Part shown: positions 6,148-16,134 of the stretch, in pieces
Layout of the letters: each line of letters opens with the position of its first letter
How positions within the stretch are numbered: the stretch's first letter is position 1
From: an uncultured Bacilli bacterium
GTDB taxonomy: Bacteria; Bacillota_I; Bacilli_A; RFN20; CAG-631
DNA length: 64,000 bases
Assembly (NCBI GenBank): GCA_947626825.1
Contig: CANQTM010000004.1
Location: 10,074-74,073, forward strand
Direction: 5' to 3'
Notes under the pieces: generated by a model
Seen by the model: the letters and a program-made list of their open reading frames with translations, nothing else
Database searches by the model: none
Told to the model about the DNA's origin: nothing
Program-made: the position numbers and the translations under genes

Positions 6148-6221
6148 GCAGGTATAGTTTAACGGTAAAATGCGTGCTTCCCAAGCTCGAAATGGGGTTT
6201 CGACTACCCTTACCTGCTCCA
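6148..6221 (+). tRNA. tRNA, folded manually as tRNA-Gly with anticodon CCC
   Basis: 74-nt cloverleaf: acceptor GCAGGTA/TACCTGC, D arm GTTT-AACGGTA-AAAT, anticodon arm CGTGC-TTCCCAA-GCTCG with one T.T mismatch, T arm GGGGT-TTCGACT-ACCCT, discriminator T plus encoded CCA. Upstream TGATAAAAT extended -10 at about 6126. Confidence 0.65.
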
Positions 6222-6310
6222 ATGGTATACCCTAACAGATTGATACAATGTGTCAGTCTGTTTTTTATAAAGTTTGACTATCAACATCTATGTGGTTTTA
6301 AAGAAAAATA

Positions 6311-6354
6311 GGTCTTAGAAAGTGCAAAAGTTGCATTTTCTAGGGCCTTTTTTG
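6311..6354 (+). terminator. Rho-independent terminator downstream of the tRNA
   Basis: Near-perfect hairpin GGTCTTAGAAAGTGCAA-aag-TTGCATTTTCTAGGGCC followed by TTTTTT. Confidence 0.5.
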
Positions 6355-6403
6355 ATGTCTTAAATCAGGGTGTCGACGATAGGGGGACGATAGGAGATGA
6401 TAG

Positions 6404-6704
6404 ATGATGAGCTTTCAATAAAAGGATCACAAATGCAAGAACAGAAGGATTTAATAATTTAGTAAAAGTAATAAAAAGAAGTGGGTATGGATATACTAAT
6501 TTCAAAAGATTTAGAAATAGAATTTTACATATTCAAAAAAAGGTTTTAAATTAAAAAATTTATAAAATTTAAGCATTCTATTTGCGGTTGTCTTATCAAA
6601 AAAGAAGCAGGTATTTTGTCTATTTGCTTCTTTTCATAAACCCCATGATTTTGAAGAGCTTTTTTTGAAAACCCCACGCAAACCCCACTTTTTCGAGGTG
6701 AGCC
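6404..6704 (+). mobile_element. 3'-terminal remnant of an ISL3-family insertion sequence (transposase C-terminus plus right inverted repeat)
   Basis: Frame at 6411-6554 encodes AFNKRITNARTEGFNNLVKVIKRSGYGYTNFKRFRNRILHIQKKVLN*, characteristic of ISL3 transposase C-termini, preceded by in-frame stops. The reverse complement of 6650-6704 reads GGCTCACCTCGAAAAAGTGGGGTTTGCGTGGGGTTTTC, an ISL3-type terminal IR. No 5' part is present. Confidence 0.55.
6411..6554 (+). pseudogene. ISL3 transposase gene fragment (last ~47 codons only)
   Basis: See the mobile_element entry; in-frame TGA TGA immediately upstream, no start codon. Confidence 0.55.
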
Positions 6705-6926
6705 TAAAAAATTAGGTGCGACTAATAAGTCAATAAGTCGTTAGAAAATAGAAAGTGCTTACTAGATGTGGTTTTATATAAAGATTTATGTAATATTTTA
6801 GACATTACTTTAAATAGATTTTTTCTTTAATAATGTTCTTTTTATATCTTTTTACATATTTTGATTAAAGAAAAAGCACCTATCTTTTTTCGATAGATGC
6901 ATCATATTTTACACTAATTCGTTGTA

Positions 6927-8141
6927 TTACCAATTTTCCATAAGTAAAAAATCAACAATATGTACCACTTTAATTCCATTAATATTTTGCACATCGTTAC
7001 GATTTGTGGTCACCACATATTTATGATTAAAATCATTAATTGAACTTAAATTTTTTATTTCCCTTTCAGAATTATCTGGCAAGCTAACTGTTGCTTGGAT
7101 TTGAATTTCATCATCTTTTCTTTTTGCAACAAAATCTATTTCTTTATCATTATTTTTACCTACATAAACTTCATATCCTCGCCTTTTAAGTTCAAGATAA
7201 ATGATGTTTTCAAGTATAGAAGCATCCATTTTCTTGTTGTAACCAAATATGGCAAAGCGCAGTGATATATCAGAAAGATAATATTTTTCTTGTGTTTTGA
7301 GAATAGACTTTCCTTGTAAATCATATCTATTACATTCATAGATTATAAACGAATCCTTAAGCCAAGTAATATAGTTATATACTGCTTCAACCGAAATTTC
7401 TTTATGTTGTTCTTTTAAATATTTAGCTATTGAATTTGCAGAAAATGTTTTACCCATATTGTCCATTAGATACTTAACAACTCTATTAAATTTTTCAACA
7501 TCCTTTATTGGATGATTACTTAACACATCTTTTGTTATTATAGAATAATATATATCTTCTACAATCTGATATGCATTTTGAAAATTAAGTTTAGAAGTAG
7601 CAATCAATGGAAAGCCACCAAATTTAACATATTCTCTATATGCTTCATCCAAGTCATCATTGCCTATTTTTTTAAATTTTAGATATTCCTTAAATGAAAG
7701 CGTATATGTGGGCACAAGAACATATCTTCTTGACAAATAAGATGAAATATGTTCACTAGTCAATTTAGAGTTTGAACCAGTTACAAAAATATCTACATTA
7801 CAAGTTTCAAATAGTGAGTTTATTGCTTGTTCCCACCCTTCTATTTCTTGAACTTCATCTAGTAAAAGATAATATTTTTCTTTATCTTGTATTTGATTTT
7901 TAAGTTCATTATACATATCTTTTTTTGTATAACCATCATCAACTTCAACACTAGTGAACAACCTATAAATAATATGGTTAAGGTTTATACCATTTATTAG
8001 TAGTTCATCACCTATCATATCCAAAATGTAAGATTTACCACTTCTTCGTACACCGACAATTATTTTAACAATATTGACATTAATAAATGGTCTAATATAA
8101 TCTAAATAATCTTGTCTGACTATTAAATCGTTTTTAAGCAT
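6927..8141 (-). CDS. AAA+ ATPase, AAA_14 plus DUF4143 (COG1373-like), paralog A
   Basis: Walker A GVRRSGKSYIL, Walker B YLLLDEVQ, C-terminal EIDFVAKR...IQIQAT DUF4143 segment. Start chosen at internal ATG (MLKNDLIV) with AGAGGTG RBS; the track start is GTG at 8153. Confidence 0.75.
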   Translation of the reverse strand: MLKNDLIVRQDYLDYIRPFINVNIVKIIVGVRRSGKSYILDMIGDELLINGINLNHIIYRLFTSVEVDDGYTKKDMYNELKNQIQDKEKYYLLLDEVQEIEGWEQAINSLFETCNVDIFVTGSNSKLTSEHISSYLSRRYVLVPTYTLSFKEYLKFKKIGNDDLDEAYREYVKFGGFPLIATSKLNFQNAYQIVEDIYYSIITKDVLSNHPIKDVEKFNRVVKYLMDNMGKTFSANSIAKYLKEQHKEISVEAVYNYITWLKDSFIIYECNRYDLQGKSILKTQEKYYLSDISLRFAIFGYNKKMDASILENIIYLELKRRGYEVYVGKNNDKEIDFVAKRKDDEIQIQATVSLPDNSEREIKNLSSINDFNHKYVVTTNRNDVQNINGIKVVHIVDFLLMENW

Positions 8142-8375
8142 AGCATAACCCACCTCTCATTTATTTATTATTATAGAATTTTACTAAACAAGTTTTAAGC
8201 AGTTAAAACAAAAAACATATCAAATTTATTTAACTTTTTTGTTTTTAAACCAAAAAACTTTATAATGATATTATAGTATTATTTAATGTTTTCATACAAT
8301 TTGACAATAAAATTGGTAAATTTATCAAAAGTAGAAATCTTTATTGACAATGTTATAGGAAAAATAGTAAAAATT

Positions 8376-8469
8376 GAAGTTTTCGGCTTTTTGTAATAAA
8401 AACAATTTGAAATTTTCGGCATTTTGTCATGTATAAAACTTGTAATTATCGGCAACACATGATATAATG
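8376..8469 (+). repeat. Three tandem ~34-bp degenerate direct repeats (core TTTTCGGC / TATCGGC) in the divergent promoter region between paralogs A and B
   Basis: gaagTTTTCGGCtttttgtaataaaaa, gaaaTTTTCGGCattttgtcatgtataaaa and gtaatTATCGGCaacacatgatataatg. The third unit contains an extended -10 TGATATAAT about 25 nt upstream of the paralog B RBS AGGAGG. Confidence 0.5.
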
Positions 8470-8492
8470 TTACCAAAAATAGGAGGTTTAAA

Positions 8493-9833
8493 ATGACCAA
8501 AAGAATTTTTGAACGTAAAATTTATCAAAAAATGTTAGATTGGAAAAGAGATTCTAATGGTAAAACTGCTCTTTTGATAAAAGGTGCGAGGCGTGTTGGC
8601 AAGTCTACCATTGCAGAAGAATTTGCTAAAAAAGAATATTCTAGTTATATTCTTATTGATTTTTCTATTGTTTCTAAGGAAGTACATAATTTGTTTAAAG
8701 ATTTGTCTGATTTGAATTATTTGTTTTTACGCCTTCAATTAATTTATCACGTTAATTTAGAAAATAGAAAATCAGTTATTATATTTGATGAAGTCCAAAG
8801 AGAACCTTTTGCTAGACAAGCAATTAAACATTTGGTTAAAGATGGAAGATATGATTATATTGAAACTGGTTCACTATTATCAATAAAAAAGAATGTTAAA
8901 AATATTGTTATTCCAAGTGAAGAAACTAGAATTGAAATGATACCTATGGATTATGAGGAGTTCCGTTGGGCACTTGGAGATAAAGCAACAATACCGATGT
9001 TGAGATTTGCTTTTGAAAATAAAAAATCTTTAAGTGATGATGTCAATCGAAGAATGATGCGTGATTTTAGACTGTATATGTTAGTTGGTGGAATGCCGCA
9101 AGCTGTGAATGAATATCTTGATACAAACAATTTTAGCAAAGTAGATCAGGTGAAACGCTCTATTTTAGAACTTTATCAAGATGATTTTAGAAAAATTGAT
9201 TCTACTGGAAGAGCATCATTAATGTTTTCTGCTATTCCATCAGAACTTGCAAAAAATGCGTCAAGATATCAAGTGTCAAGTGTCATTGCAAATGGAAAAA
9301 ATGATCGTGTACTTGAAATTATTGCAGATATGAAAGATTCTTTGACTGTTAATATTGCATATCATGCAAATAATCCGAGTGCAGGAATGTCTTTACATGA
9401 AGACACTGCTAGATATAAAATGTTTCTTAGCGATACTGGTTTGTTTACTACACTTGCATTTATGGATAAAGATTTCACCGAAAATGTTATCTATGAAAAA
9501 CTTTTAAATGACAAACTTGATACTGATTTAGGATATTTGTATGAAAATATAGTTGCACAAATGCTTTATGCAACAGGAAACAAATTATTTTACTACACAT
9601 TTCCTAAAGAAAATTCGAGTCATAACTACGAAATTGATTTTTTGATTGCTAAAAGAAATAAGATATCACCTATTGAGGTAAAATCATCAGGATACAAAAC
9701 ACATAGATCAATTGATGCCTTCGTTAATAAATTTTCAGATAAAATAGGGCAAAGATATTTGGTTTATACAAAGGATTTAAGAAAAGATGGCGAATTACTT
9801 TGCATACCAATTTATATGACAATGTTTCTATAA
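8493..9833 (+). CDS. AAA+ ATPase, AAA_14 plus DUF4143 (COG1373-like), paralog B
   Basis: Walker A GARRVGKSTIA, Walker B IIFDEVQ, C-terminal EIDFLIAKRNKISPIEVKSSG (D...E-x-K-like). Strong RBS AGGAGGT. Confidence 0.75.
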   Translation: MTKRIFERKIYQKMLDWKRDSNGKTALLIKGARRVGKSTIAEEFAKKEYSSYILIDFSIVSKEVHNLFKDLSDLNYLFLRLQLIYHVNLENRKSVIIFDEVQREPFARQAIKHLVKDGRYDYIETGSLLSIKKNVKNIVIPSEETRIEMIPMDYEEFRWALGDKATIPMLRFAFENKKSLSDDVNRRMMRDFRLYMLVGGMPQAVNEYLDTNNFSKVDQVKRSILELYQDDFRKIDSTGRASLMFSAIPSELAKNASRYQVSSVIANGKNDRVLEIIADMKDSLTVNIAYHANNPSAGMSLHEDTARYKMFLSDTGLFTTLAFMDKDFTENVIYEKLLNDKLDTDLGYLYENIVAQMLYATGNKLFYYTFPKENSSHNYEIDFLIAKRNKISPIEVKSSGYKTHRSIDAFVNKFSDKIGQRYLVYTKDLRKDGELLCIPIYMTMFL

Positions 9834-9860
9834 TAAATTAAAAAATGAAAGATAATGATT

Positions 9861-9895
9861 AAAAGCATCTATCAGAATAGTAGATGCTTTTCTTA
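9861..9895 (+). terminator. Rho-independent terminator after paralog B
   Basis: AAAAGCATCTA-tcagaatag-TAGATGCTTTTC hairpin plus T-run. Confidence 0.5.
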
Positions 9896-9914
9896 TACTC
9901 AAAAACAAGTTATT

Positions 9915-9955
9915 TCGTAAAAAGATGGTAAACCGCAAAAATATTAAATAAGAGT
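9915..9955. repeat. Degenerate copy of the 38-bp palindromic repeat
   Basis: ggtaaaccgcaaaaatattaaataag aligns with the right half of the intact repeat (gggtacacgcaaaaaattaacataaa); the left half has decayed. Confidence 0.35.
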
Positions 9956-10082
9956 AGTAGGTGTTAAATTATTTCAAAACAATTAATATCTGTATTATAT
10001 ATTATATTTTAATTCTATGTTTGTAATAATTGTCGAAACTTAAGGCACAAATGTCACAACATTCTAATAGGAGGGCTAAATT

Positions 10083-11354
10083 GTGATTAAAAGAGATTTT
10101 TATTTAAAACAAATCATTGAAAGAATGTGGAATGGAAATATCAAAGTTATAACTGGAATTAGACGCGGAGGAAAATCAACACTTCTTTTTAATTTATTTA
10201 AAGAATATTTACTTTCAACTGGAGTTAGTGAAAATCACATAATAGAAATTGAACTTGATAAACGAAAATTTTATAAATTTAGAGACCCAATTTTTCTTTG
10301 TGACTATGTTGAAAACATCGTTAATGAAGGAAAAAATGATAAATATTATCTTTTAATCGATGAAGTTCAACTTACAAAAAAAGTCAAGGATAAAGCAAGT
10401 GATATAGAAGTAAGCATATACGATATGTTAAATGAGTTAAAGGCATATCCAAATCTTGATTGTTATGTTACAAGTTGTAATTCAAAAATGCTTTCAAGCG
10501 ATATTGCTACAGAATTTCGTGGAAGATCAAGTCAAATAAAAGTGTATCCATTTTCTTTTGAAGAATTTTATTCTTATAGAGGTGGTGGTGTAAGTGAAGC
10601 ATTAGATGAATATATGCTTTATGGTGGTATGCCAGGACTTATCAATGAATCGACTGAGGAACAAAAACGAACATATCTAAAAAATCTTTATGATGAGATT
10701 TATATAAAAGATTTAGTCGAGCACGCAAGAGTGCAAAGACAAGATGTTTTAGAAGAATTGTTAGATTATTTAGCATCTTCTATAGGTTCCTTAACAAACG
10801 CCAATAAAATTACAAGCGCTATTAACACAAAAGCATCAAGTAAAATATCTGATGATACTATAGCAAAATATCTTAAACATACAATGGATGCATTCCTTAT
10901 TTTTGAGGCAAGAAGATATGATGTGAAAGGCAAAAAATATTTTGATTATCCAAATAAATATTATTATTCTGATGTTGGACTTAGGAATATTAGATTAAAC
11001 TATCGCCAAATTGATTCTGGATACATTATGGAAAATATGATTTATAATGAGCTTATAAGACGAGGATATTCTGTTGATGTAGGAGTAGTCGAAGATAGAA
11101 GTAATAATAATAAAAAAATAAAAGAGATAGATTTTGTAGTTAATAATTTTGATAAAAAAATTTATATTCAATCTGCGTTTAGAATAGATGATCAAAAAAA
11201 GAAGGAAAAGGAACTTGATTCTTTAAAACTTACAGCAGATTTCTTTAAAAAAATAGTGATAAGAAATGATATACCAACAACTTTTTATGATGATGATGGA
11301 ATAATGCATTGTAGATTCATTGATTTTTTATTGAATAACGTTGAATTATTTTAA
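10083..11354 (+). CDS. AAA+ ATPase, AAA_14 plus DUF4143 (COG1373-like), paralog C; GTG start
   Basis: Walker A GIRRGGKSTLL, Walker B LLIDEVQ, C-terminal EIDFVVNNFDKKIYIQSA. RBS AGGAGGG 8 nt before GTG. Confidence 0.75.
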   Translation: MIKRDFYLKQIIERMWNGNIKVITGIRRGGKSTLLFNLFKEYLLSTGVSENHIIEIELDKRKFYKFRDPIFLCDYVENIVNEGKNDKYYLLIDEVQLTKKVKDKASDIEVSIYDMLNELKAYPNLDCYVTSCNSKMLSSDIATEFRGRSSQIKVYPFSFEEFYSYRGGGVSEALDEYMLYGGMPGLINESTEEQKRTYLKNLYDEIYIKDLVEHARVQRQDVLEELLDYLASSIGSLTNANKITSAINTKASSKISDDTIAKYLKHTMDAFLIFEARRYDVKGKKYFDYPNKYYYSDVGLRNIRLNYRQIDSGYIMENMIYNELIRRGYSVDVGVVEDRSNNNKKIKEIDFVVNNFDKKIYIQSAFRIDDQKKKEKELDSLKLTADFFKKIVIRNDIPTTFYDDDGIMHCRFIDFLLNNVELF

Positions 11355-11402
11355 TTAAACATATGTGGTATACATTTTTTCAAGATCATTAAATTTATAT
11401 AA

Positions 11403-11436
11403 AAGGCTACTCTAAATTAATTGAGTAGTTTTTTAT
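11403..11436 (+). terminator. Rho-independent terminator after paralog C
   Basis: AAAAGGCTACTC-taaattaatt-GAGTAGTTTTTTATTT. Confidence 0.5.
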
Positions 11437-11536
11437 TTGCATATTTAAATTAAATAAAATATTTTTGTTGTATTTTTTTAAAAAATTTAAAGCAACAAAA
11501 TAATAATGAAATGCATTTAAATATAATTATATTTCA

Positions 11537-11575
11537 ATGTTAAAAAAATTGCGGGTACACGCAAAAAATTAACAT
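11537..11575. repeat. 38-bp nested palindromic repeat, copy 1
   Basis: ATGTTAAaaaaaTTGCGggtacacCGCAAaaaaTTAACAT: outer arms ATGTTAA/TTAACAT and inner arms TTGCG/CGCAA with A-tract spacers. Confidence 0.7.
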
Positions 11576-11673
11576 AAAGGCTAATATAATTATTTGAAAT
11601 TGATAATTTTTATTGTAAAATTATTTTGAAATGCAATTTTTGACAGCGTTTTTTTTAAAAATATAATATTTTT

Positions 11674-11711
11674 ATGTTAAAAAAATGCGGGTACACGCAA
11701 AAAATTAACAT
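11674..11711. repeat. 38-bp nested palindromic repeat, copy 2 (about 10 bp upstream of the paralog D -35)
   Basis: ATGTTAAAAAAATGCGGGTACACGCAAAAAATTAACAT. Followed by promoter TTGCAA-16-TATAAT at about 11722-11750 and RBS GGAGGTG. Confidence 0.7.
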
Positions 11712-11774
11712 AAACGCGTTGCAAATTTTATTTTTTTTACTATAATAAAGATAGAAACAATTGGAGGTGTTTTT

Positions 11775-13028
11775 ATGATTTTCCCCAGAAAGAAGAATTT
11801 AGATCAATTAATTAAACATCAAAACAATGGATTAATAAAAATTATTACTGGTTTACGTCGTTCTGGTAAATCATATCTTTTAGATCCAATTTTTAAAAAA
11901 TATTTATTAGAAACTGGTATTAAAGAAGATCATATTATTAAATTCGATTTGGAAAAACAATTGAATAGTAAATATTGGGATCCTAATGAATTAGCAAAAT
12001 ATTTGGAATCATGTATTGTTGACAAAGATAAATATTATTTTTTATTAGATGAAATTCAACTAGTAAAAGGTTTTGAATTTGTTTTAAATGGATTGTTGCA
12101 CATTCCTAATGTAGATGTTTATGTTACAGGAAGCAATTCAAAATTTTTATCATCAGATATTATCAGTGAATTTAGAGGTAGAGGTGATGAAATTAAAGTA
12201 TTTCCACTAACATTTTCTGAATATTATGAATGCGTTGGTGGCAATAAACATGAAGCATTGATAAGTTATATGCATTATGGTGGCCTTCCTCAATGCGCAT
12301 CTATAGATGATCTTGAAGTAAAGCAACATTATTTAGTTGGACTTTATAAAACTATTTATCTTGCTGATTTAAAACAAAGACATCGTATTAAGGAAATGGA
12401 AGTGTTTGACAATCTTTTAGAAATTCTTTCTTCGGATATTGGTTCATTTACTAATTTTAAAAAATTATCAAACACATTTAAAACTGTATTGAATGTTAAT
12501 GTAAGTTTTAATACTATCAAAAGATATTGTGAATATTTAGAAGATGCATTTTTAATCAATCAAGCAAAAAGATATGATATTAAAGGAAAAAAATACATTG
12601 CTTCTTTAAAAAAAATATATTTTACAGATTTAGGTATTCGTAATGCTTTAATTGGTTTTCGCCAATATGAAGTTTCTCATTTAATGGAAAATCTTATCTA
12701 TAATGAATTGTGTTATCGTGGTTTTAGTGTTGATTTAGGAATTGTTATAAAAAACGCTAGTGATAAAAATAAAGGAAATATAAGAAATTATTTTGAAGTT
12801 GATTTTGTAGCTAATAAAGGATATAAAAGATATTACATTCAATCAGCATTGATTATTCCTGATGCCAAGAAAATGGCACAAGAAGAAAAATCATTAGATT
12901 GTATTTCTGATAATTTTCAAAAAATAATAATTGTTTATGATGATTTTGTAACCTATCATCAAAATGAAAAAGGCTATATTATGATGAATCTTATAGAATT
13001 TTTAGAACATCCTGAATATATAAACTAA
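11775..13028 (+). CDS. AAA+ ATPase, AAA_14 plus DUF4143 (COG1373-like), paralog D
   Basis: Walker A GLRRSGKSYLL, Walker B FLLDEIQ, C-terminal EVDFVANKGYKRYYIQSA. Confidence 0.75.
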   Translation: MIFPRKKNLDQLIKHQNNGLIKIITGLRRSGKSYLLDPIFKKYLLETGIKEDHIIKFDLEKQLNSKYWDPNELAKYLESCIVDKDKYYFLLDEIQLVKGFEFVLNGLLHIPNVDVYVTGSNSKFLSSDIISEFRGRGDEIKVFPLTFSEYYECVGGNKHEALISYMHYGGLPQCASIDDLEVKQHYLVGLYKTIYLADLKQRHRIKEMEVFDNLLEILSSDIGSFTNFKKLSNTFKTVLNVNVSFNTIKRYCEYLEDAFLINQAKRYDIKGKKYIASLKKIYFTDLGIRNALIGFRQYEVSHLMENLIYNELCYRGFSVDLGIVIKNASDKNKGNIRNYFEVDFVANKGYKRYYIQSALIIPDAKKMAQEEKSLDCISDNFQKIIIVYDDFVTYHQNEKGYIMMNLIEFLEHPEYIN

Positions 13029-13049
13029 AATAATTTGAATAATATTTTA

Positions 13050-13086
13050 ATGTTAAAAAATTGCGTGTATCCGCAATAAATTAACA
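13050..13086. repeat. 38-bp nested palindromic repeat, copy 3 (21 bp after the paralog D stop)
   Basis: ATGTTAAAAAATTGCGTGTATCCGCAATAAATTAACAT. Arms conserved, centre diverged. Confidence 0.65.
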
Positions 13087-13244
13087 TAGCATCTTCTCAA
13101 TTCATCACTTTAAAGACTTGCTTTACACTTTTATTAATGTCATTTTTATTTAAATTGTTCATTTTCAATATATTTAAACATATTGATGTTTTTTTATTTT
13201 GTGGTATAATGTAAGAAAAGTAAGAAAAATATGGAGAGATATTC

Positions 13245-13472
13245 ATGAATGATGAGCAAGATAAATTTATTTGGACAACAAAAATCACTAGTAAAGGACA
13301 AATTGTTATTCCAAAACAGGCACGTGATGTTTTTGGTTTTAAAGATGGAGACATACTTATTTTACTTGGTGATAGAAGTAAAGGTATTGCTATTGCAAAA
13401 TATGATGATTATTTAAAATTTGCTGAAGAAATTTTTAAATTAAAAGGTGATGATAAAAATGATAACAAATAA
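13245..13472 (+). CDS. AbrB/MazE/SpoVT-family small DNA-binding protein
   Basis: TKITSKGQIVIPKQARDVFGFKDGD swapped-hairpin AbrB-type motif; 75 aa. Extended -10 TGTGGTATAAT at about 13200. Confidence 0.6.
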   Translation: MNDEQDKFIWTTKITSKGQIVIPKQARDVFGFKDGDILILLGDRSKGIAIAKYDDYLKFAEEIFKLKGDDKNDNK

Positions 13473-14388
13473 TATTATTGAAATTAATCATTTAAAGAAA
13501 TATTTTAAAGATGTTAAAGCAGTTGATGATATTTCTTTTGCCATCAAAAAAGGAGAATTTTTTGCTTTTCTTGGTTTAAATGGAGCTGGCAAATCTACAA
13601 CGATAAATATTATTTGCGGACAACTTTTAAAAGATAGTGGGGATGTTATTATTGATGGTTTAAACTTAGATAATGATATTAGTAAAATTAAGCCAAAACT
13701 TGGAGTTGTTTTTCAAAATTCTGTTCTTGATTCAAAACTTACTATTTTTGAAAATTTAAAATTTAAAGCTGATTTATATGGCTTAAGTAAAGAAAAATTT
13801 AAAGAAAATTTGGATTATCTTGCGGAAACTTTAGAATTTAAAGATATCTTAAATCGTTCTTTATATAAATTAAGTGGTGGGCAAAAAAGAAGAGTCGATA
13901 TAGCACGTGCCCTTATTCATAATCCAGAAATTCTTATATTAGACGAGCCAACTACAGGACTTGATCCTAAAACAAGAATTCTTGTTTGGAAACTTTTAGC
14001 TAATTTAAGACAAACAAAAGAACTTACTATCATTTTAACAACTCATTATATGGAAGAATCTGATGAAGCAGATACAATTGTTATAATAGATAATGGGAAA
14101 ATTGTTGCTAATGACACACCAAATAATTTAAAAAATAAATATGCCAATGATTTTTTGAAAATATATAAATATGATAAACATTTAATTGAATTACTAAATC
14201 AAAATAAAATAAAATTCATAAAAACAGATAAAGCATTAGAAATAGAACTATCTAATATCGAAGAAGCAAAAAATATTATCATTAATTATGATAAATATAT
14301 TTTTGATTTTGAAGTATTTAAAGGAAAAATGGATAATGTCTTTTTAAACATAACTGGTAAGGACTTGAAGGAGGAGCAAGTAATATGA
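13459..14388 (+). CDS. ABC transporter ATP-binding protein (ABC-2 type)
   Basis: Walker A GLNGAGKST, signature LSGGQKRR, Walker B ILILDEPTTGLD. Start set at ATG 13459, 9 nt after AAAGGTG; the track begins at GTG 13447. Confidence 0.8.
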   Translation: MITNNIIEINHLKKYFKDVKAVDDISFAIKKGEFFAFLGLNGAGKSTTINIICGQLLKDSGDVIIDGLNLDNDISKIKPKLGVVFQNSVLDSKLTIFENLKFKADLYGLSKEKFKENLDYLAETLEFKDILNRSLYKLSGGQKRRVDIARALIHNPEILILDEPTTGLDPKTRILVWKLLANLRQTKELTIILTTHYMEESDEADTIVIIDNGKIVANDTPNNLKNKYANDFLKIYKYDKHLIELLNQNKIKFIKTDKALEIELSNIEEAKNIIINYDKYIFDFEVFKGKMDNVFLNITGKDLKEEQVI

Positions 14389-15293
14389 AAAGCGAAATAA
14401 TAAAACTCTTTGCTTTAATAAAAAGAAATATTAAATTATATTTTAAAGATAAAATGACTTTTTTTGTTTCTTTATTAACTCCTCTAATTTTAGTTGTTTT
14501 ATTTTTAACTTTTTTAAAAAATGTATATGCTGATACTATTATCAATATAATACCAGAAGGAATAGAAATTAATAAAAGCACAATTGAAGCTTTTTGTGGT
14601 GGATGGTTATTTTCATCAATAATATCTGTTTCTTGTGTAACAGTTTCGTTTTGTTCTAATATAATGGTTCTTGATAAATTAAATAAAACTATTGATGATT
14701 TAAATATAACACCTGTTAAAAGATCGACATTGTTAATATCCTATTTTATATCTAATTTTTTAACAACATTTTTAATTGGCATAATTGTACTTATTATAAG
14801 TTTTATCTATCTTGGATTTGTGGGCTTCTATTTAACGTTTTTAGATATAATAATGTTATTTGTTTCAACATTTTGTATGTGTTTATTTGGTAGTTTATTA
14901 GCATCAATTATTGGAACATTTATATCTTCACAAGGTGCTCATTCAGCCATATCAACACTTGTTTCTTCAATGTATGGTTTTATAAGCGGTGCCTATATGC
15001 CAATATCACAATTTGGTAGTGGGATAAGAAACTTTTTAAGTTTTTTACCAAGTACTTATGGAACTGTATTATTTAGACAATATTATATGAATGGAGTTAT
15101 CAATCAATTACAAGTGGTAGAAAATGTACCTCAAGAAATAACAGAACAAATTAGACTTTCATTTGATGGAAAGTTAATATTGTTTAATAATACAATTCCT
15201 ACTTGGGCACTTTTTATAGTTGTAATTGGAACAAGCATTATTTTATTAGGAATATATATTTTGTTATCTAATTTAAAAAGCAAAAAAAATTAA
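14385..15293 (+). CDS. ABC-2 family transporter permease
   Basis: Six hydrophobic TM segments; start overlaps the ATPase stop (ATGA). Confidence 0.65.
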   Translation: MKSEIIKLFALIKRNIKLYFKDKMTFFVSLLTPLILVVLFLTFLKNVYADTIINIIPEGIEINKSTIEAFCGGWLFSSIISVSCVTVSFCSNIMVLDKLNKTIDDLNITPVKRSTLLISYFISNFLTTFLIGIIVLIISFIYLGFVGFYLTFLDIIMLFVSTFCMCLFGSLLASIIGTFISSQGAHSAISTLVSSMYGFISGAYMPISQFGSGIRNFLSFLPSTYGTVLFRQYYMNGVINQLQVVENVPQEITEQIRLSFDGKLILFNNTIPTWALFIVVIGTSIILLGIYILLSNLKSKKN

Positions 15294-15417: not shown

Positions 15418-16134
15418 ATGAAAAAACCATTAATGATAGCTCATAGAGGCTATTCGCAATTTGAAAAAGAAAATACTTTAATAGCATTTACTGCTGCAGG
15501 AGCAATTGAAGAATTTTATGGTATTGAAACAGATGTTCATGTAACTAATGATAATCATTTTGTTATAATTCATGATGAAGAAACAAATCGAGTTAGTGAT
15601 GGGCATGCCCAACTTAATGTTGAAAAAAATAGTTTTGAAATGGTTAGAAAAGTTAAATTAACAGATATTGATGGCTATGCAGGAAGAGTTGATTTAAGAA
15701 TACCTGAAATGATTGAATATTTTAGAATATGCAAAAAATATCATAAAATAGCTGTTTTAGAACTTAAACAACCATTTAGTGTTGAACAAGTTCAAGCAAT
15801 AATTGATATTATTAAAAATATTGATATGCTTGATAATACAATTTTTATTTCTTTCCATTTAGAAGCATTATTGAATTTAAGAAAAATATCTAAAACACTA
15901 AAAGCACAATGGTTACTTGGAGAATTAAAAGACGAACATTATGAAATTTTACAAAATAACAATTTAGATGTTGATGTATTATATACAACAACAACTAAAG
16001 AAAAAATTGATAAATGCCATTCTTTAGGAATCAAAGTAAACATTTGGACAGTTAATGATCAAGAAGTAGCAAATAAATATGCTGAATATGGAGTAGATTT
16101 TATAACATCAAATTGGATTAAGGAAACATTTTAA
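15418..16134 (+). CDS. Glycerophosphodiester phosphodiesterase (GDPD family)
   Basis: MIAHRGYS...ENTLIAF...GIETDVHVTNDNHFVIIHDE catalytic motifs. Confidence 0.8.
   Translation: MKKPLMIAHRGYSQFEKENTLIAFTAAGAIEEFYGIETDVHVTNDNHFVIIHDEETNRVSDGHAQLNVEKNSFEMVRKVKLTDIDGYAGRVDLRIPEMIEYFRICKKYHKIAVLELKQPFSVEQVQAIIDIIKNIDMLDNTIFISFHLEALLNLRKISKTLKAQWLLGELKDEHYEILQNNNLDVDVLYTTTTKEKIDKCHSLGIKVNIWTVNDQEVANKYAEYGVDFITSNWIKETF

Follow-up and report, generated by a model that had tools for sequence, protein, structure and literature searches.

A dense cluster of four PDC-S01-type ATPase genes beside a tRNA-Gly gene of an uncultured Bacilli bacterium

Introduction

How do four related ATPase genes come to lie side by side next to a tRNA gene, and what might their products do there? 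The question is raised by a stretch of 64,000 nucleotides (nt) from an uncultured Bacilli bacterium (CAG-631; assembly GCA_947626825.1, contig CANQTM010000004.1, positions 10,074-74,073; termed the window below, with positions counted from its first letter), which has a guanine-plus-cytosine (GC) content of approximately 25%. A tRNA-Gly gene is followed in it by four genes with the domain architecture AAA_14 plus DUF4143: paralogue A (6927..8141, minus strand, 404 amino acids), B (8493..9833, plus strand, 446 amino acids), C (10083..11354, plus strand, 423 amino acids, with a GTG start after GGAGG) and D (11775..13028, plus strand, 417 amino acids). B carries an ExK motif in its C-terminal domain (ExK-type); A, C and D carry a glutamine-containing one (Q-type). 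The original prediction, made from the sequence alone, had placed the tRNA, the terminators, the 3' end of an ISL3 element and the four genes (one divergent, three co-directional) correctly, and had read them as tandem, rapidly diverged copies in a defence-island layout.

In the reading that is favoured here on balance, and as a joint proposition, four single-gene cassettes of the phage-defence candidate PDC-S01 were acquired independently of one another and accumulated in a strain-variable spot to form the block, and the encoded proteins would act as ATP-dependent, nucleic-acid-sensing conflict proteins that switch by oligomerisation like Avs proteins and NLR proteins (nucleotide-binding proteins with leucine-rich repeats).

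Results

Family assignment

All four proteins exceeded the Pfam gathering scores for AAA_14, followed by DUF4143 (77-104 bits at a cut-off of 27 and 57-66 bits at a cut-off of 28.1, respectively); the architecture and the motifs named in the original prediction were thereby recovered. These are, in the order A, B, C and D, the Walker A sequences GVRRSGKS, GARRVGKS, GIRRGGKS and GLRRSGKS, the Walker B sequences LLLDEVQ, IIFDEVQ, LLIDEVQ and FLLDEIQ, and the ExDF blocks EIDFV, EIDFL, EIDFV and EVDFV. The by-eye observation that B is the only copy with an ExK after this block (IEVK; A: IQAT; C and D: IQSA) was likewise correct. For comparison, a profile of the A/C/D type retrieved 22,579 cluster representatives (50% identity clusters) at E <=0.001, the best 150 of which with at least 380 amino acids were aligned. 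Walker A (GxxxxGK[ST]) and Walker B (hhhDE) are intact in all four paralogues; their G, K, S, D and E residues are invariant in A-D and conserved to 88-99% in the 150 diverse relatives.

The four proteins also gave full-length matches to the PADLOC models of PDC-S01, in keeping with the earlier label of candidate defence proteins: A, C and D matched PDLC04787 (E 5.8e-138, 1e-108 and 6.3e-110, respectively) and B matched PDLC04792 (E 1.6e-96) and PDLC04786 (E 1.7e-95), so that the PADLOC models divide the paralogues in the same way as the C-terminal motif. By these matches the family is assigned to Pfam AAA_14 + DUF4143 and COG1373, catalogued as PDC-S01. No match to a NACHT, NB-ARC or Avs hidden Markov model (HMM) was found in the Pfam and PADLOC scans of the four proteins; an NCBIfam scan and a single-sequence search of the PDB gave no matches either.

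PDC-S01 is one of the phage-defence candidates (PDCs) of PADLOC (Payne et al. 2024, bioRxiv 10.1101/2024.01.29.577857), which were nominated through "guilt by embedding" in restriction-modification (R-M), BREX and DISARM loci and entered PADLOC as untested candidates. It has been described as an ATPase fused to a domain of the PD-(D/E)xK superfamily (PMC12988326) and as the fourth commonest prokaryotic defence, with 29,494 bacterial and 9,986 archaeal matches, validation being pending for most PDCs; in rumen genomes it is the most frequent single locus. PDC-S01 has an entry in PADLOC and is described in published work, so that the locus clearly exemplifies a catalogued, very abundant candidate and is no new kind of system; what sets it apart is that it forms an unusually dense cluster of this family.

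The open reading frame (ORF) called for A begins at a GTG at 8153. Translation from the ATG at 8141 gives 404 amino acids, the length of nearly all homologues, and a ribosome-binding site, AGAGGTGG, lies 9-10 nt upstream of this ATG; because of the homologue lengths and the position of this site, the ATG at 8141 and not the GTG at 8153 is most likely the start of A.

Divergence of the four copies

The amino acid identity between A and C and between A and D is 32%, between C and D 44%, and between B and the others 23-28% over partial alignments. At the nucleotide level no similarity was detected among the paralogues except for 36-38 nt at Walker B. Cluster representatives from elsewhere are far closer to each copy searched than its neighbours in the window: in searches for closer relatives of A, B and C, each with at least 120 cluster representatives (90% identity clusters), the identities were 56-90% for A, 85-100% for B and 79-96% for C; more than 100 representatives per copy were counted at 80% identity or higher. 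Exact-protein look-ups of D and of the ABC ATPase encoded in the right flank returned no match. The ratio of nonsynonymous to synonymous substitution rates (dN/dS, Nei-Gojobori) against orthologues was 0.06-0.19 for all four genes, with dS values of up to 1-2. All four lineages are old, with strong purifying selection acting on each; the description of the genes as rapidly diverged tandem copies is contradicted by these data.

Transfer of the B lineage as a single-gene cassette

The boundaries of the B cassette were drawn from B orthologues in 16 independent contexts (78-84% nucleotide identity; contexts are given below by their L numbers). Homology to the window stopped at the B stop codon (9833-9842) in 15 of them and continued to 9934 in L116; in the 15 contexts that include the 5' end of the gene, it started 60-144 bp upstream of the B ATG (8349-8433). 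The contigs with B orthologues range from 23 to 45% in GC content. In L116-L118, the B gene has 35% GC amid flanks of 42-53% GC and encodes a protein 90-91% identical to B; similarly, a C orthologue (84%) of 33.5% GC is situated between flanks of 38% and 41% GC on a contig of 40% GC, and C homologues of up to 96% identity were found. By these comparisons the B lineage spreads horizontally as a single-gene cassette of promoter and ORF.

The conserved 5' block of the cassette (8349..8492, plus strand; delimited by sequence, promoter scan and orthologue contexts) contains three direct repeats, TTGAA(A/G)TTTTCGGC / TTGTAATTATCGGC, 33 bp apart (8374-8387, 8407-8420 and 8440-8453; the repeat unit can also be written TTGAAATTTTCGGC). 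The third repeat overlaps the -35 element of an extended -10 promoter, TTGTAA-17-TGxTATAAT (8440-8468), which is followed by the ribosome-binding site GGAGG (8481-8485). The triple repeat is kept upstream of the B orthologues in the unrelated contexts L093, L119, L126 and L129; it resembles an operator carried along with B and might possibly serve autoregulation by the winged helix of B.

A wider sample comprised 80 B-type loci with 636 kb of flanks, in eight of which a tRNA gene lies within 1.2 kb upstream (Leu, Thr-Val-Gly and Pro sites). In L119, the hairpin region after tRNA-Leu (8857-8905) is repeated approximately 660 bp further on (9513-9560), just before the B-type cassette, and may be the scar of an earlier insertion at tRNA-Leu. 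Downstream of B, a hairpin was read from the sequence at 9861-9890 (plus strand; GCATCTATC...GATGC; absent from the list of the terminator scan), and the terminator of A in the window shares a GCATCTATC..GATAGGTGC hairpin. Moreover, 90 bp of the window downstream of B (9860-9948) are 79% identical to the sequence downstream of the A orthologue in L108 (9230-9319). The match and the shared hairpin together indicate 3' flanks that are common to cassettes whose proteins are only approximately 23% identical.

Strain variability of the locus

The tRNA-Gly gene (anticodon CCC; 6148..6221, plus strand; ARAGORN; Rfam tRNA 57.1 bits) is the fixed left anchor of the variable segment and is followed on the same strand by two terminator-like hairpins (6234-6262 and 6310-6348; terminator scan). 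Next to them lies the ISL3 fragment (6369..6662, plus strand), whose truncated left edge is the point of strain divergence. Its frame +1 (6411-6554) encodes the C-terminal 47 codons of the transposase, AFNKRITNARTEGFNNLVKVIKRSGYGYTNFKRFRNRILHIQKKVLN, i.e. AFNKRITNARTEGFNN...KKVLN, and matches the Pfam profile DDE_Tnp_ISL3 at E 1.1e-11. The fragment is a 3' remnant, because just the last 38 of the 240 profile positions (203-240) are matched; a complete DDE transposase with both inverted repeats is not present. A candidate terminal repeat ending ...TTTTGAAGAGC near 6647-6660 was recognized by eye and may be an ISL3 end.

At 6204-6256, a large number of metagenomic contigs of this species break off. 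In L003, whose flank is 98% identical, the homology extends past the tRNA and the two terminators and is lost at approximately 6368, at the truncated ISL3 edge; beyond it, a Sel1-repeat gene that the window lacks takes the place of the ISL3 remnant. Contiguous A-B-C was found in L010 and contiguous C-D-MazE-like gene-ABC operon in L013-L017. In the 93%-identical relative L113, the order is C, D, an additional gene and B, and the homology to the window ends at 13044; in L129, a tRNA-Pro gene is followed by B and the start of C, and in L108 an A orthologue (81%) is accompanied by two further paralogues within 7 kb. No empty site was recovered among the strains compared. The synteny comparison accordingly documents a variable spot with IS-associated rearrangement (IS, insertion sequence) and several cassette gains. 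A search by the cytidylate-kinase-like protein of the left flank yielded 68 loci (best identity 69%) with no HIT, methyltransferase, ABC operon or AAA_14 gene nearby, these loci being too distant to test the conservation of the block.

The additional gene of L113 (3836-5086) encodes a 416-amino-acid protein with SLFN/AlbA_2 and HATPase_c_4 domains; nothing comparable is present in the window, and the gene is another cassette-like accessory gene in the array.

A presence/absence polymorphism of a family member was found between L108 and L109. L108 has, and L109 lacks, a 1.96-kb segment with an ExK-type AAA_14/DUF4143 gene and a 195-amino-acid gene; the segment is flanked in L108 by a 39-bp direct repeat, ATCTAGTAAAATTTACAATTGAATTGTAAAAAATACT.. 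(14013-14051 and 15972-16010), which contains the perfect palindrome TTTACAATTGAATTGTAAA and occurs as a single copy in L109 (approximately 13055-13093). This indicates either an insertion at a hairpin site or a deletion between the repeats.

Palindromes also surround D. A repeat search revealed three plus-strand copies of a palindromic element of approximately 50 nt (core ATGTTAA-A5-TGCG-GGTACA-CGCA-A5-TTAACAT): copies 1 and 2 (11527-11576 and 11663-11712) bracket a perfect consensus promoter of D, TTGACA-16-TATAAT (11640-11667; promoter scan), and copy 3 (13039-13088) stands directly after D, at the point where the homology of L113 ends (13044). The first two copies belong to a 136-bp tandem duplication with one palindrome per unit, which appears to be single-unit in L013-L017 (overlapping BLAST segments). 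The element was found nowhere else in the window, and a pattern scan of JGI metagenomes gave no match. Conceivable roles are those of an operator, of a bidirectional terminator or of a recombination site.

Two more specific readings of the palindromes were rejected. The integron attC site has the consensus RYYYAAC...GTTRRRY; no intI gene accompanies the palindromes, and ATGTTAA...TTAACAT shows the opposite order of core sites. A likeness of the arms to XerD half-sites, noted by eye, is not conserved among the three copies.

Two clades with different C-terminal motifs

At the position of the catalytic glutamate of B, glutamine is found in 144 of the 147 aligned A/C/D-type sequences, and the position of the B lysine is occupied by A, T, C, S or V, a lysine occurring once, in B itself. 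The helix glutamate (E-N; 98%) and E-x-D-F (95-98%) are conserved in the 150 A/C/D-type relatives. Conversely, ExK is kept in 78 of the 80 metagenomic B relatives (47-91% identity; approximate motif rule). B is thus the sole copy of the window with the canonical PD-(D/E)xK triad (EIDF...IEVK); the canonical nuclease site is missing in A, C and D as well as in all 150 top-scoring diverse A/C/D relatives examined. On these alignments, ExK versus Qx[A/T/C/S] separates two ancient subfamilies, of which the Q clade (A, C, D) is, as sampled, by far the larger, and the C-terminal diversification at this locus that the original prediction had proposed is to be replaced by a clade-wide difference. Since Glu and Lys are exchanged for Q and a small residue in the sampled A/C/D relatives, the label "nuclease" for the whole PDC-S01 family may be wrong for a large part of it.

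A possible role of ExK- and Q-type proteins as obligate partners was considered as well: exactly one ExK member is present in each of four multi-gene clusters (the window, L091, L108 and L113; L109 has none), but 76 of the 80 B-type loci are solitary, and the proposal was dropped.

Structural likeness of the encoded proteins

The AlphaFold2 model of A (100-sequence alignment) is of high confidence (predicted local distance difference test score (pLDDT) 89.6; predicted template modelling score 0.90) and suggests a P-loop ATPase, a helical domain with GG-x-P, a winged helix and a C-terminal PD-(D/E)xK-type alpha-beta-beta-beta-alpha-beta domain as the layout of the proteins; a FUR-like Pfam match coincides with the winged helix. 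In the structural comparison, the model scored highest with the archaeal AAA+ ATPase SSO1545 (2fna; 17.9) and PAB2304 (2qen; 17.8), followed by a TIR-NLR tetramer (16.7), CED-4 (16.6), the wheat NB-ARC resistosome (16.5), Cdc6/Orc1 (13.0), Avs5 (12.4) and Avs3 (11.1). The top Foldseek matches were Orc1/Cdc6 (E 1.6e-7 to 2.5e-7), RFC and DnaA. The full-length structure searches were dominated by the ATPase part. By sequence, the family profile finds 2fna at E 3e-7; SSO1545 and PAB2304 are members of the Arch_ATPase family (PF01637). The GG-x-P motif follows the ATPase core in the helical domain and is invariant in A-D (G179 99%, G180 96% and P182 100% in the 150 diverse relatives); a GxP motif in the helical domain is reportedly a signature of the signal transduction ATPases with numerous domains (STAND). 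In the model, the module of ATPase, helical domain and winged helix thus resembles most closely 2fna, 2qen and the STAND/NB-ARC proteins (plant NLRs, CED-4, Avs).

The secondary structure predicted for the last 100 residues of A (helix 303-320; strands 324-330, 333-341 and 344-351; helix 360-366; strand 373-378) follows the order helix, three strands, helix, strand, which is the core topology of the PD-(D/E)xK enzymes; E311 is located on the helix, D336 on strand 2 and Q349 on strand 3. When the C-terminal domain alone was searched, A matched Mrr_cat with 20.4 bits (cut-off 21; E 5.9e-4) and PDDEXK_5 (E 0.044), and B matched NERD with 20.9 bits (cut-off 22.1; E 5.5e-4) and SfsA (E 0.15), all below threshold. 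DUF4143/COG1373 has been listed as family number 100 of the PD-(D/E)xK superfamily, with unknown function (Steczkiewicz 2012, PMC3424549). This listing, the predicted core and the near-threshold Mrr_cat and NERD matches agree with the clan membership given in the original prediction, and the fold assignment of the C-terminal domain is well supported but not proven.

Flanking genes and transcription signals

The left flank encodes a GH26 enzyme, a membrane protein, a methyltransferase, a HIT protein and the cytidylate-kinase-like protein. The right flank begins with an AbrB/MazE-like gene that overlaps an ABC-2 transporter, followed by GDPD, NAD synthase, Sir2, AraC, MntP, Glu/Gln-tRNA synthetase and Obg. 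The MazE-like gene (13245-13472; 75 amino acids; Pfam MazE_antitoxin, E 8.8e-9) overlaps the start of the ABC-2 operon (13447-15293) by approximately 26 nt; a role of its product as a small SpoVT/AbrB-type transporter regulator is more likely than one as an antitoxin. In all strains recovered the gene marks the conserved right border of the block.

Between 5900 and 13500, eight terminator-like sites were detected versus 1.3 expected (terminator scan). The terminator of A lies at 6900-6876 (minus strand); a hairpin 3' of C (near 11403-11432, plus strand) was recognized by eye and is absent from the list of the scan. Promoter-like matches occur at chance level in DNA of 25% GC (64 versus 58.9 expected; promoter scan). 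The statement that each gene has its own promoter, ribosome-binding site and terminator therefore has to be modified with regard to the promoters, which rest on the conserved upstream blocks and not on the scan. An Rfam scan of the region gave the tRNA only, a sau-19 match at 9847-9896 being far below threshold.

Discussion

Accumulated cassettes of proposed conflict proteins

The proposed mechanism follows the immune ATPases of the Avs and NLR type. The winged helix and/or the nuclease-like domain would bind a nucleic-acid cue, ATP would be exchanged or hydrolysed and the protein would oligomerise; the C-terminal domains clustered in this way might then be activated. Proteins of the ExK clade would cut invading or host DNA, whereas the E/D/Q pocket of the Q clade would more likely serve to bind or hold a nucleic-acid structure, or else support a non-canonical catalysis. 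The net role would be phage defence or the exclusion of other mobile elements, with several specificities kept side by side, each transcribed separately. Regarded as a minimal STAND/NLR-type switch, the ATPase module offers a concrete model of activation. The association with other defence genes seen in relatives is compatible with such a role: in L091, a Q-type paralogue and a type I R-M system (HsdM, HsdS, HsdR) adjoin a 94% orthologue of B, the flanks being otherwise unrelated, and HsdM and HsdR are encoded nearby in L120.

Several observations weigh against the conflict-protein role or its details. The catalytic lysine and glutamate are missing from A, C and D, so that the nuclease step is unsupported for these three proteins. 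The C-terminal fold rests on the order of secondary structures and on sub-threshold HMM matches, and the structural argument is carried by A, since the B model (pLDDT 51.9) was not used; its poor quality is due to an alignment short on diversity. No separate sensor of tetratricopeptide repeats (TPR), leucine-rich repeats (LRR) or WD40 type was found by Pfam or in the model of A, unlike in the characterised STAND immune proteins. Only 4 of the 80 B-type loci contain a second family member, and the two contexts that were inspected gene by gene lie among ordinary genes. In the window itself, the neighbouring genes are housekeeping genes, and PADLOC gave only generic matches (a polymerase-like protein, an ABC ATPase) and no other defence system among the flanking proteins tested. 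Finally, in the only phage assay reported for a PDC-S01 gene, a copy of cold-seep origin expressed in E. coli B did not protect against T4, T5 or T7 and was outside the four protecting candidates (10.1101/2024.09.26.614923), and no functional study was found in the literature on DUF4143, COG1373, AAA_14 and PF13173.

Alternative explanations

An unlikely explanation, yet the one to be taken most seriously, is that the genes are selfish single-gene elements or addiction modules (homing-like or acting by post-segregational killing) with no net benefit for the host. The tight limits of the cassette (promoter block plus ORF up to the stop codon), its spread over 23-45% GC with no linked recombinase, and the recurrence of the B lineage a short way downstream of tRNA genes at three further sites (the 8 of 80 loci above) would fit such elements, as would the palindromic 39-bp direct repeat around the L108 polymorphism and the palindromes on both sides of D. 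The family is, furthermore, frequent on plasmids: among 72,556 plasmid records, 235 have a homologue of A, in every case below 60% identity, and Acinetobacter accounts for 175 of these records. The insertion contexts are, however, heterogeneous, with no common target sequence found, and around B neither terminal inverted repeats nor target duplications could be discerned. The Q clade persists in other genomes and contexts although it lacks the canonical nuclease site, and the strong purifying selection as well as one B orthologue (P0135) that is stably placed across many samples resemble the behaviour of resident genes.

Rather improbable is a role as non-conflict ATPases of DNA transactions or regulation (switches like Orc1/Cdc6, or repair factors) that are multi-copy by chance. 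The structural likeness to Cdc6/Orc1, RFC and DnaA, the winged helix with its FUR-like match, the operator-like repeats of the B promoter (which suggest autoregulation by DNA binding), the purifying selection and the negative phage assay are all consistent with it. Genes of this kind would not be expected to be so patchy, strain-variable and horizontally transferred, with many paralogues per locus that vary in presence and absence; the R-M adjacency in relatives and the lack of conserved synteny with any pathway also speak against it.

A very speculative variant credits the AAA_14/DUF4143 genes with autonomous mobility: the protein itself would catalyse or direct the insertion of its cassette at hairpin- or terminator-like palindromes, often downstream of tRNAs. 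It is compatible with the tight limits in the 16 contexts, the spread over 23-45% GC, the tRNAs in 8 of 80 loci and the palindromic repeats, one copy of the element around D lying at a rearrangement breakpoint; if it were true, PDC-S01, among the most abundant of the defence candidates, would represent a new class of mobile element that works without a recombinase, or else a defence gene that carries its own mobility.

Less probable still is that a prophage or an integrative element came in by way of the tRNA-Gly gene and decayed, its cargo being left behind. The tRNA adjacency, the IS debris and the breaking of species contigs at the tRNA recall such an element. Among the ORFs of at least 60 amino acids between 6222 and 13244, however, only the four paralogues and short antisense ORFs were found and no integrase, phage or conjugation gene, the sole trace of a recombinase being the 47-codon ISL3 fragment. 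The 23-nt 3' end of the tRNA occurs once in the window with three mismatches allowed, i.e. no att repeat is present; the GC content of the block (25-29%) is no compositional outlier against its flanks (24-25%); homologues were found in just 14 of 50,697 phage records, mostly short virome fragments; and the strain breakpoint is situated at the ISL3 edge, not at the tRNA. No R-M, BREX or DISARM genes were present among the flanking window ORFs tested. Because no other defence system was recognized among the flanking proteins tested, no integrase accompanies the genes, the tRNA 3' end is unrepeated and the GC content is ordinary, the locus is not a multi-system defence island and bears no sign of a classical integrase-mediated island; the layout typical of defence islands that had been ascribed to it is not borne out, the neighbours being housekeeping genes.

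Effectively excluded, finally, is the scenario of one ancestral gene that was duplicated in tandem at this site and whose copies diversified fast under arms-race selection, especially in the nuclease domain: the packing of four genes of one family into 6.1 kb, three of them co-directional, and the pair C and D, closest to each other within the window (44%) and adjacent also in L013-L017 and L113, favour it, but apart from 36-38 nt at Walker B there is no nucleotide similarity, the identity of B to the other copies is no more than 23-28% over partial alignments, closer relatives exist elsewhere for every copy searched (A 90%, B 94-100%, C 96%), dN/dS is 0.06-0.19, the ExK/Q difference is clade-wide and the gene order differs in relatives.

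Comparison with known systems

With regard to the preferred reading of accumulated conflict-protein cassettes, the STAND NTPases provide a parallel: the combination of nucleotide-binding domain, helical domain and winged helix resembling NB-ARC/NACHT is present in the locus proteins. Compared with Avs3 and Avs4 (which have PD-(D/E)xK effectors), Avs5 and NLR/CED-4, the locus proteins comprise only approximately 400-450 amino acids, end 60-70 residues past the nuclease-like core and are devoid of a TPR, LRR or WD40 sensor; the effector is N-terminal in Avs and NLR proteins and C-terminal here, and the catalytic lysine is absent from three of the four. The Orc1/Cdc6 replication initiators share with the A model an AAA+ fold followed by a DNA-binding winged helix. 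To the Mrr and NERD nucleases, the proteins are linked by the near-threshold matches and the same order of secondary structures, with E, D and ExK on helix 1, strand 2 and strand 3; the matches, however, fall short of the curated cut-offs, Qx[A/T] replaces ExK in A, C and D, and the nuclease domain is fused to a DNA-recognition domain in Mrr/NERD but to an ATPase switch in the locus proteins.

Beyond these likenesses, the analysis yielded, as by-products, the clade-wide loss of Glu and Lys, the NLR-like switch module, the predicted triple-repeat operator and the palindrome-flanked cassette polymorphisms. The B cassette is self-contained, with a conserved triple repeat as its predicted operator, and members of the family can pile up in one spot. 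The results bear on how the PADLOC counts of PDC-S01, a family without demonstrated activity, are to be read, and the window offers a natural set of genes under native control, one of the ExK type and three of the Q type. In comparison with PDC-S01 as catalogued, the locus proteins match the HMMs end to end, have the same architecture and differ in nothing in kind; the candidacy of the family was built on embedding in R-M, BREX and DISARM loci, and the window genes are not so embedded. Unusual is the presence of four members together, given a second member in only 4 of the 80 B-type loci.

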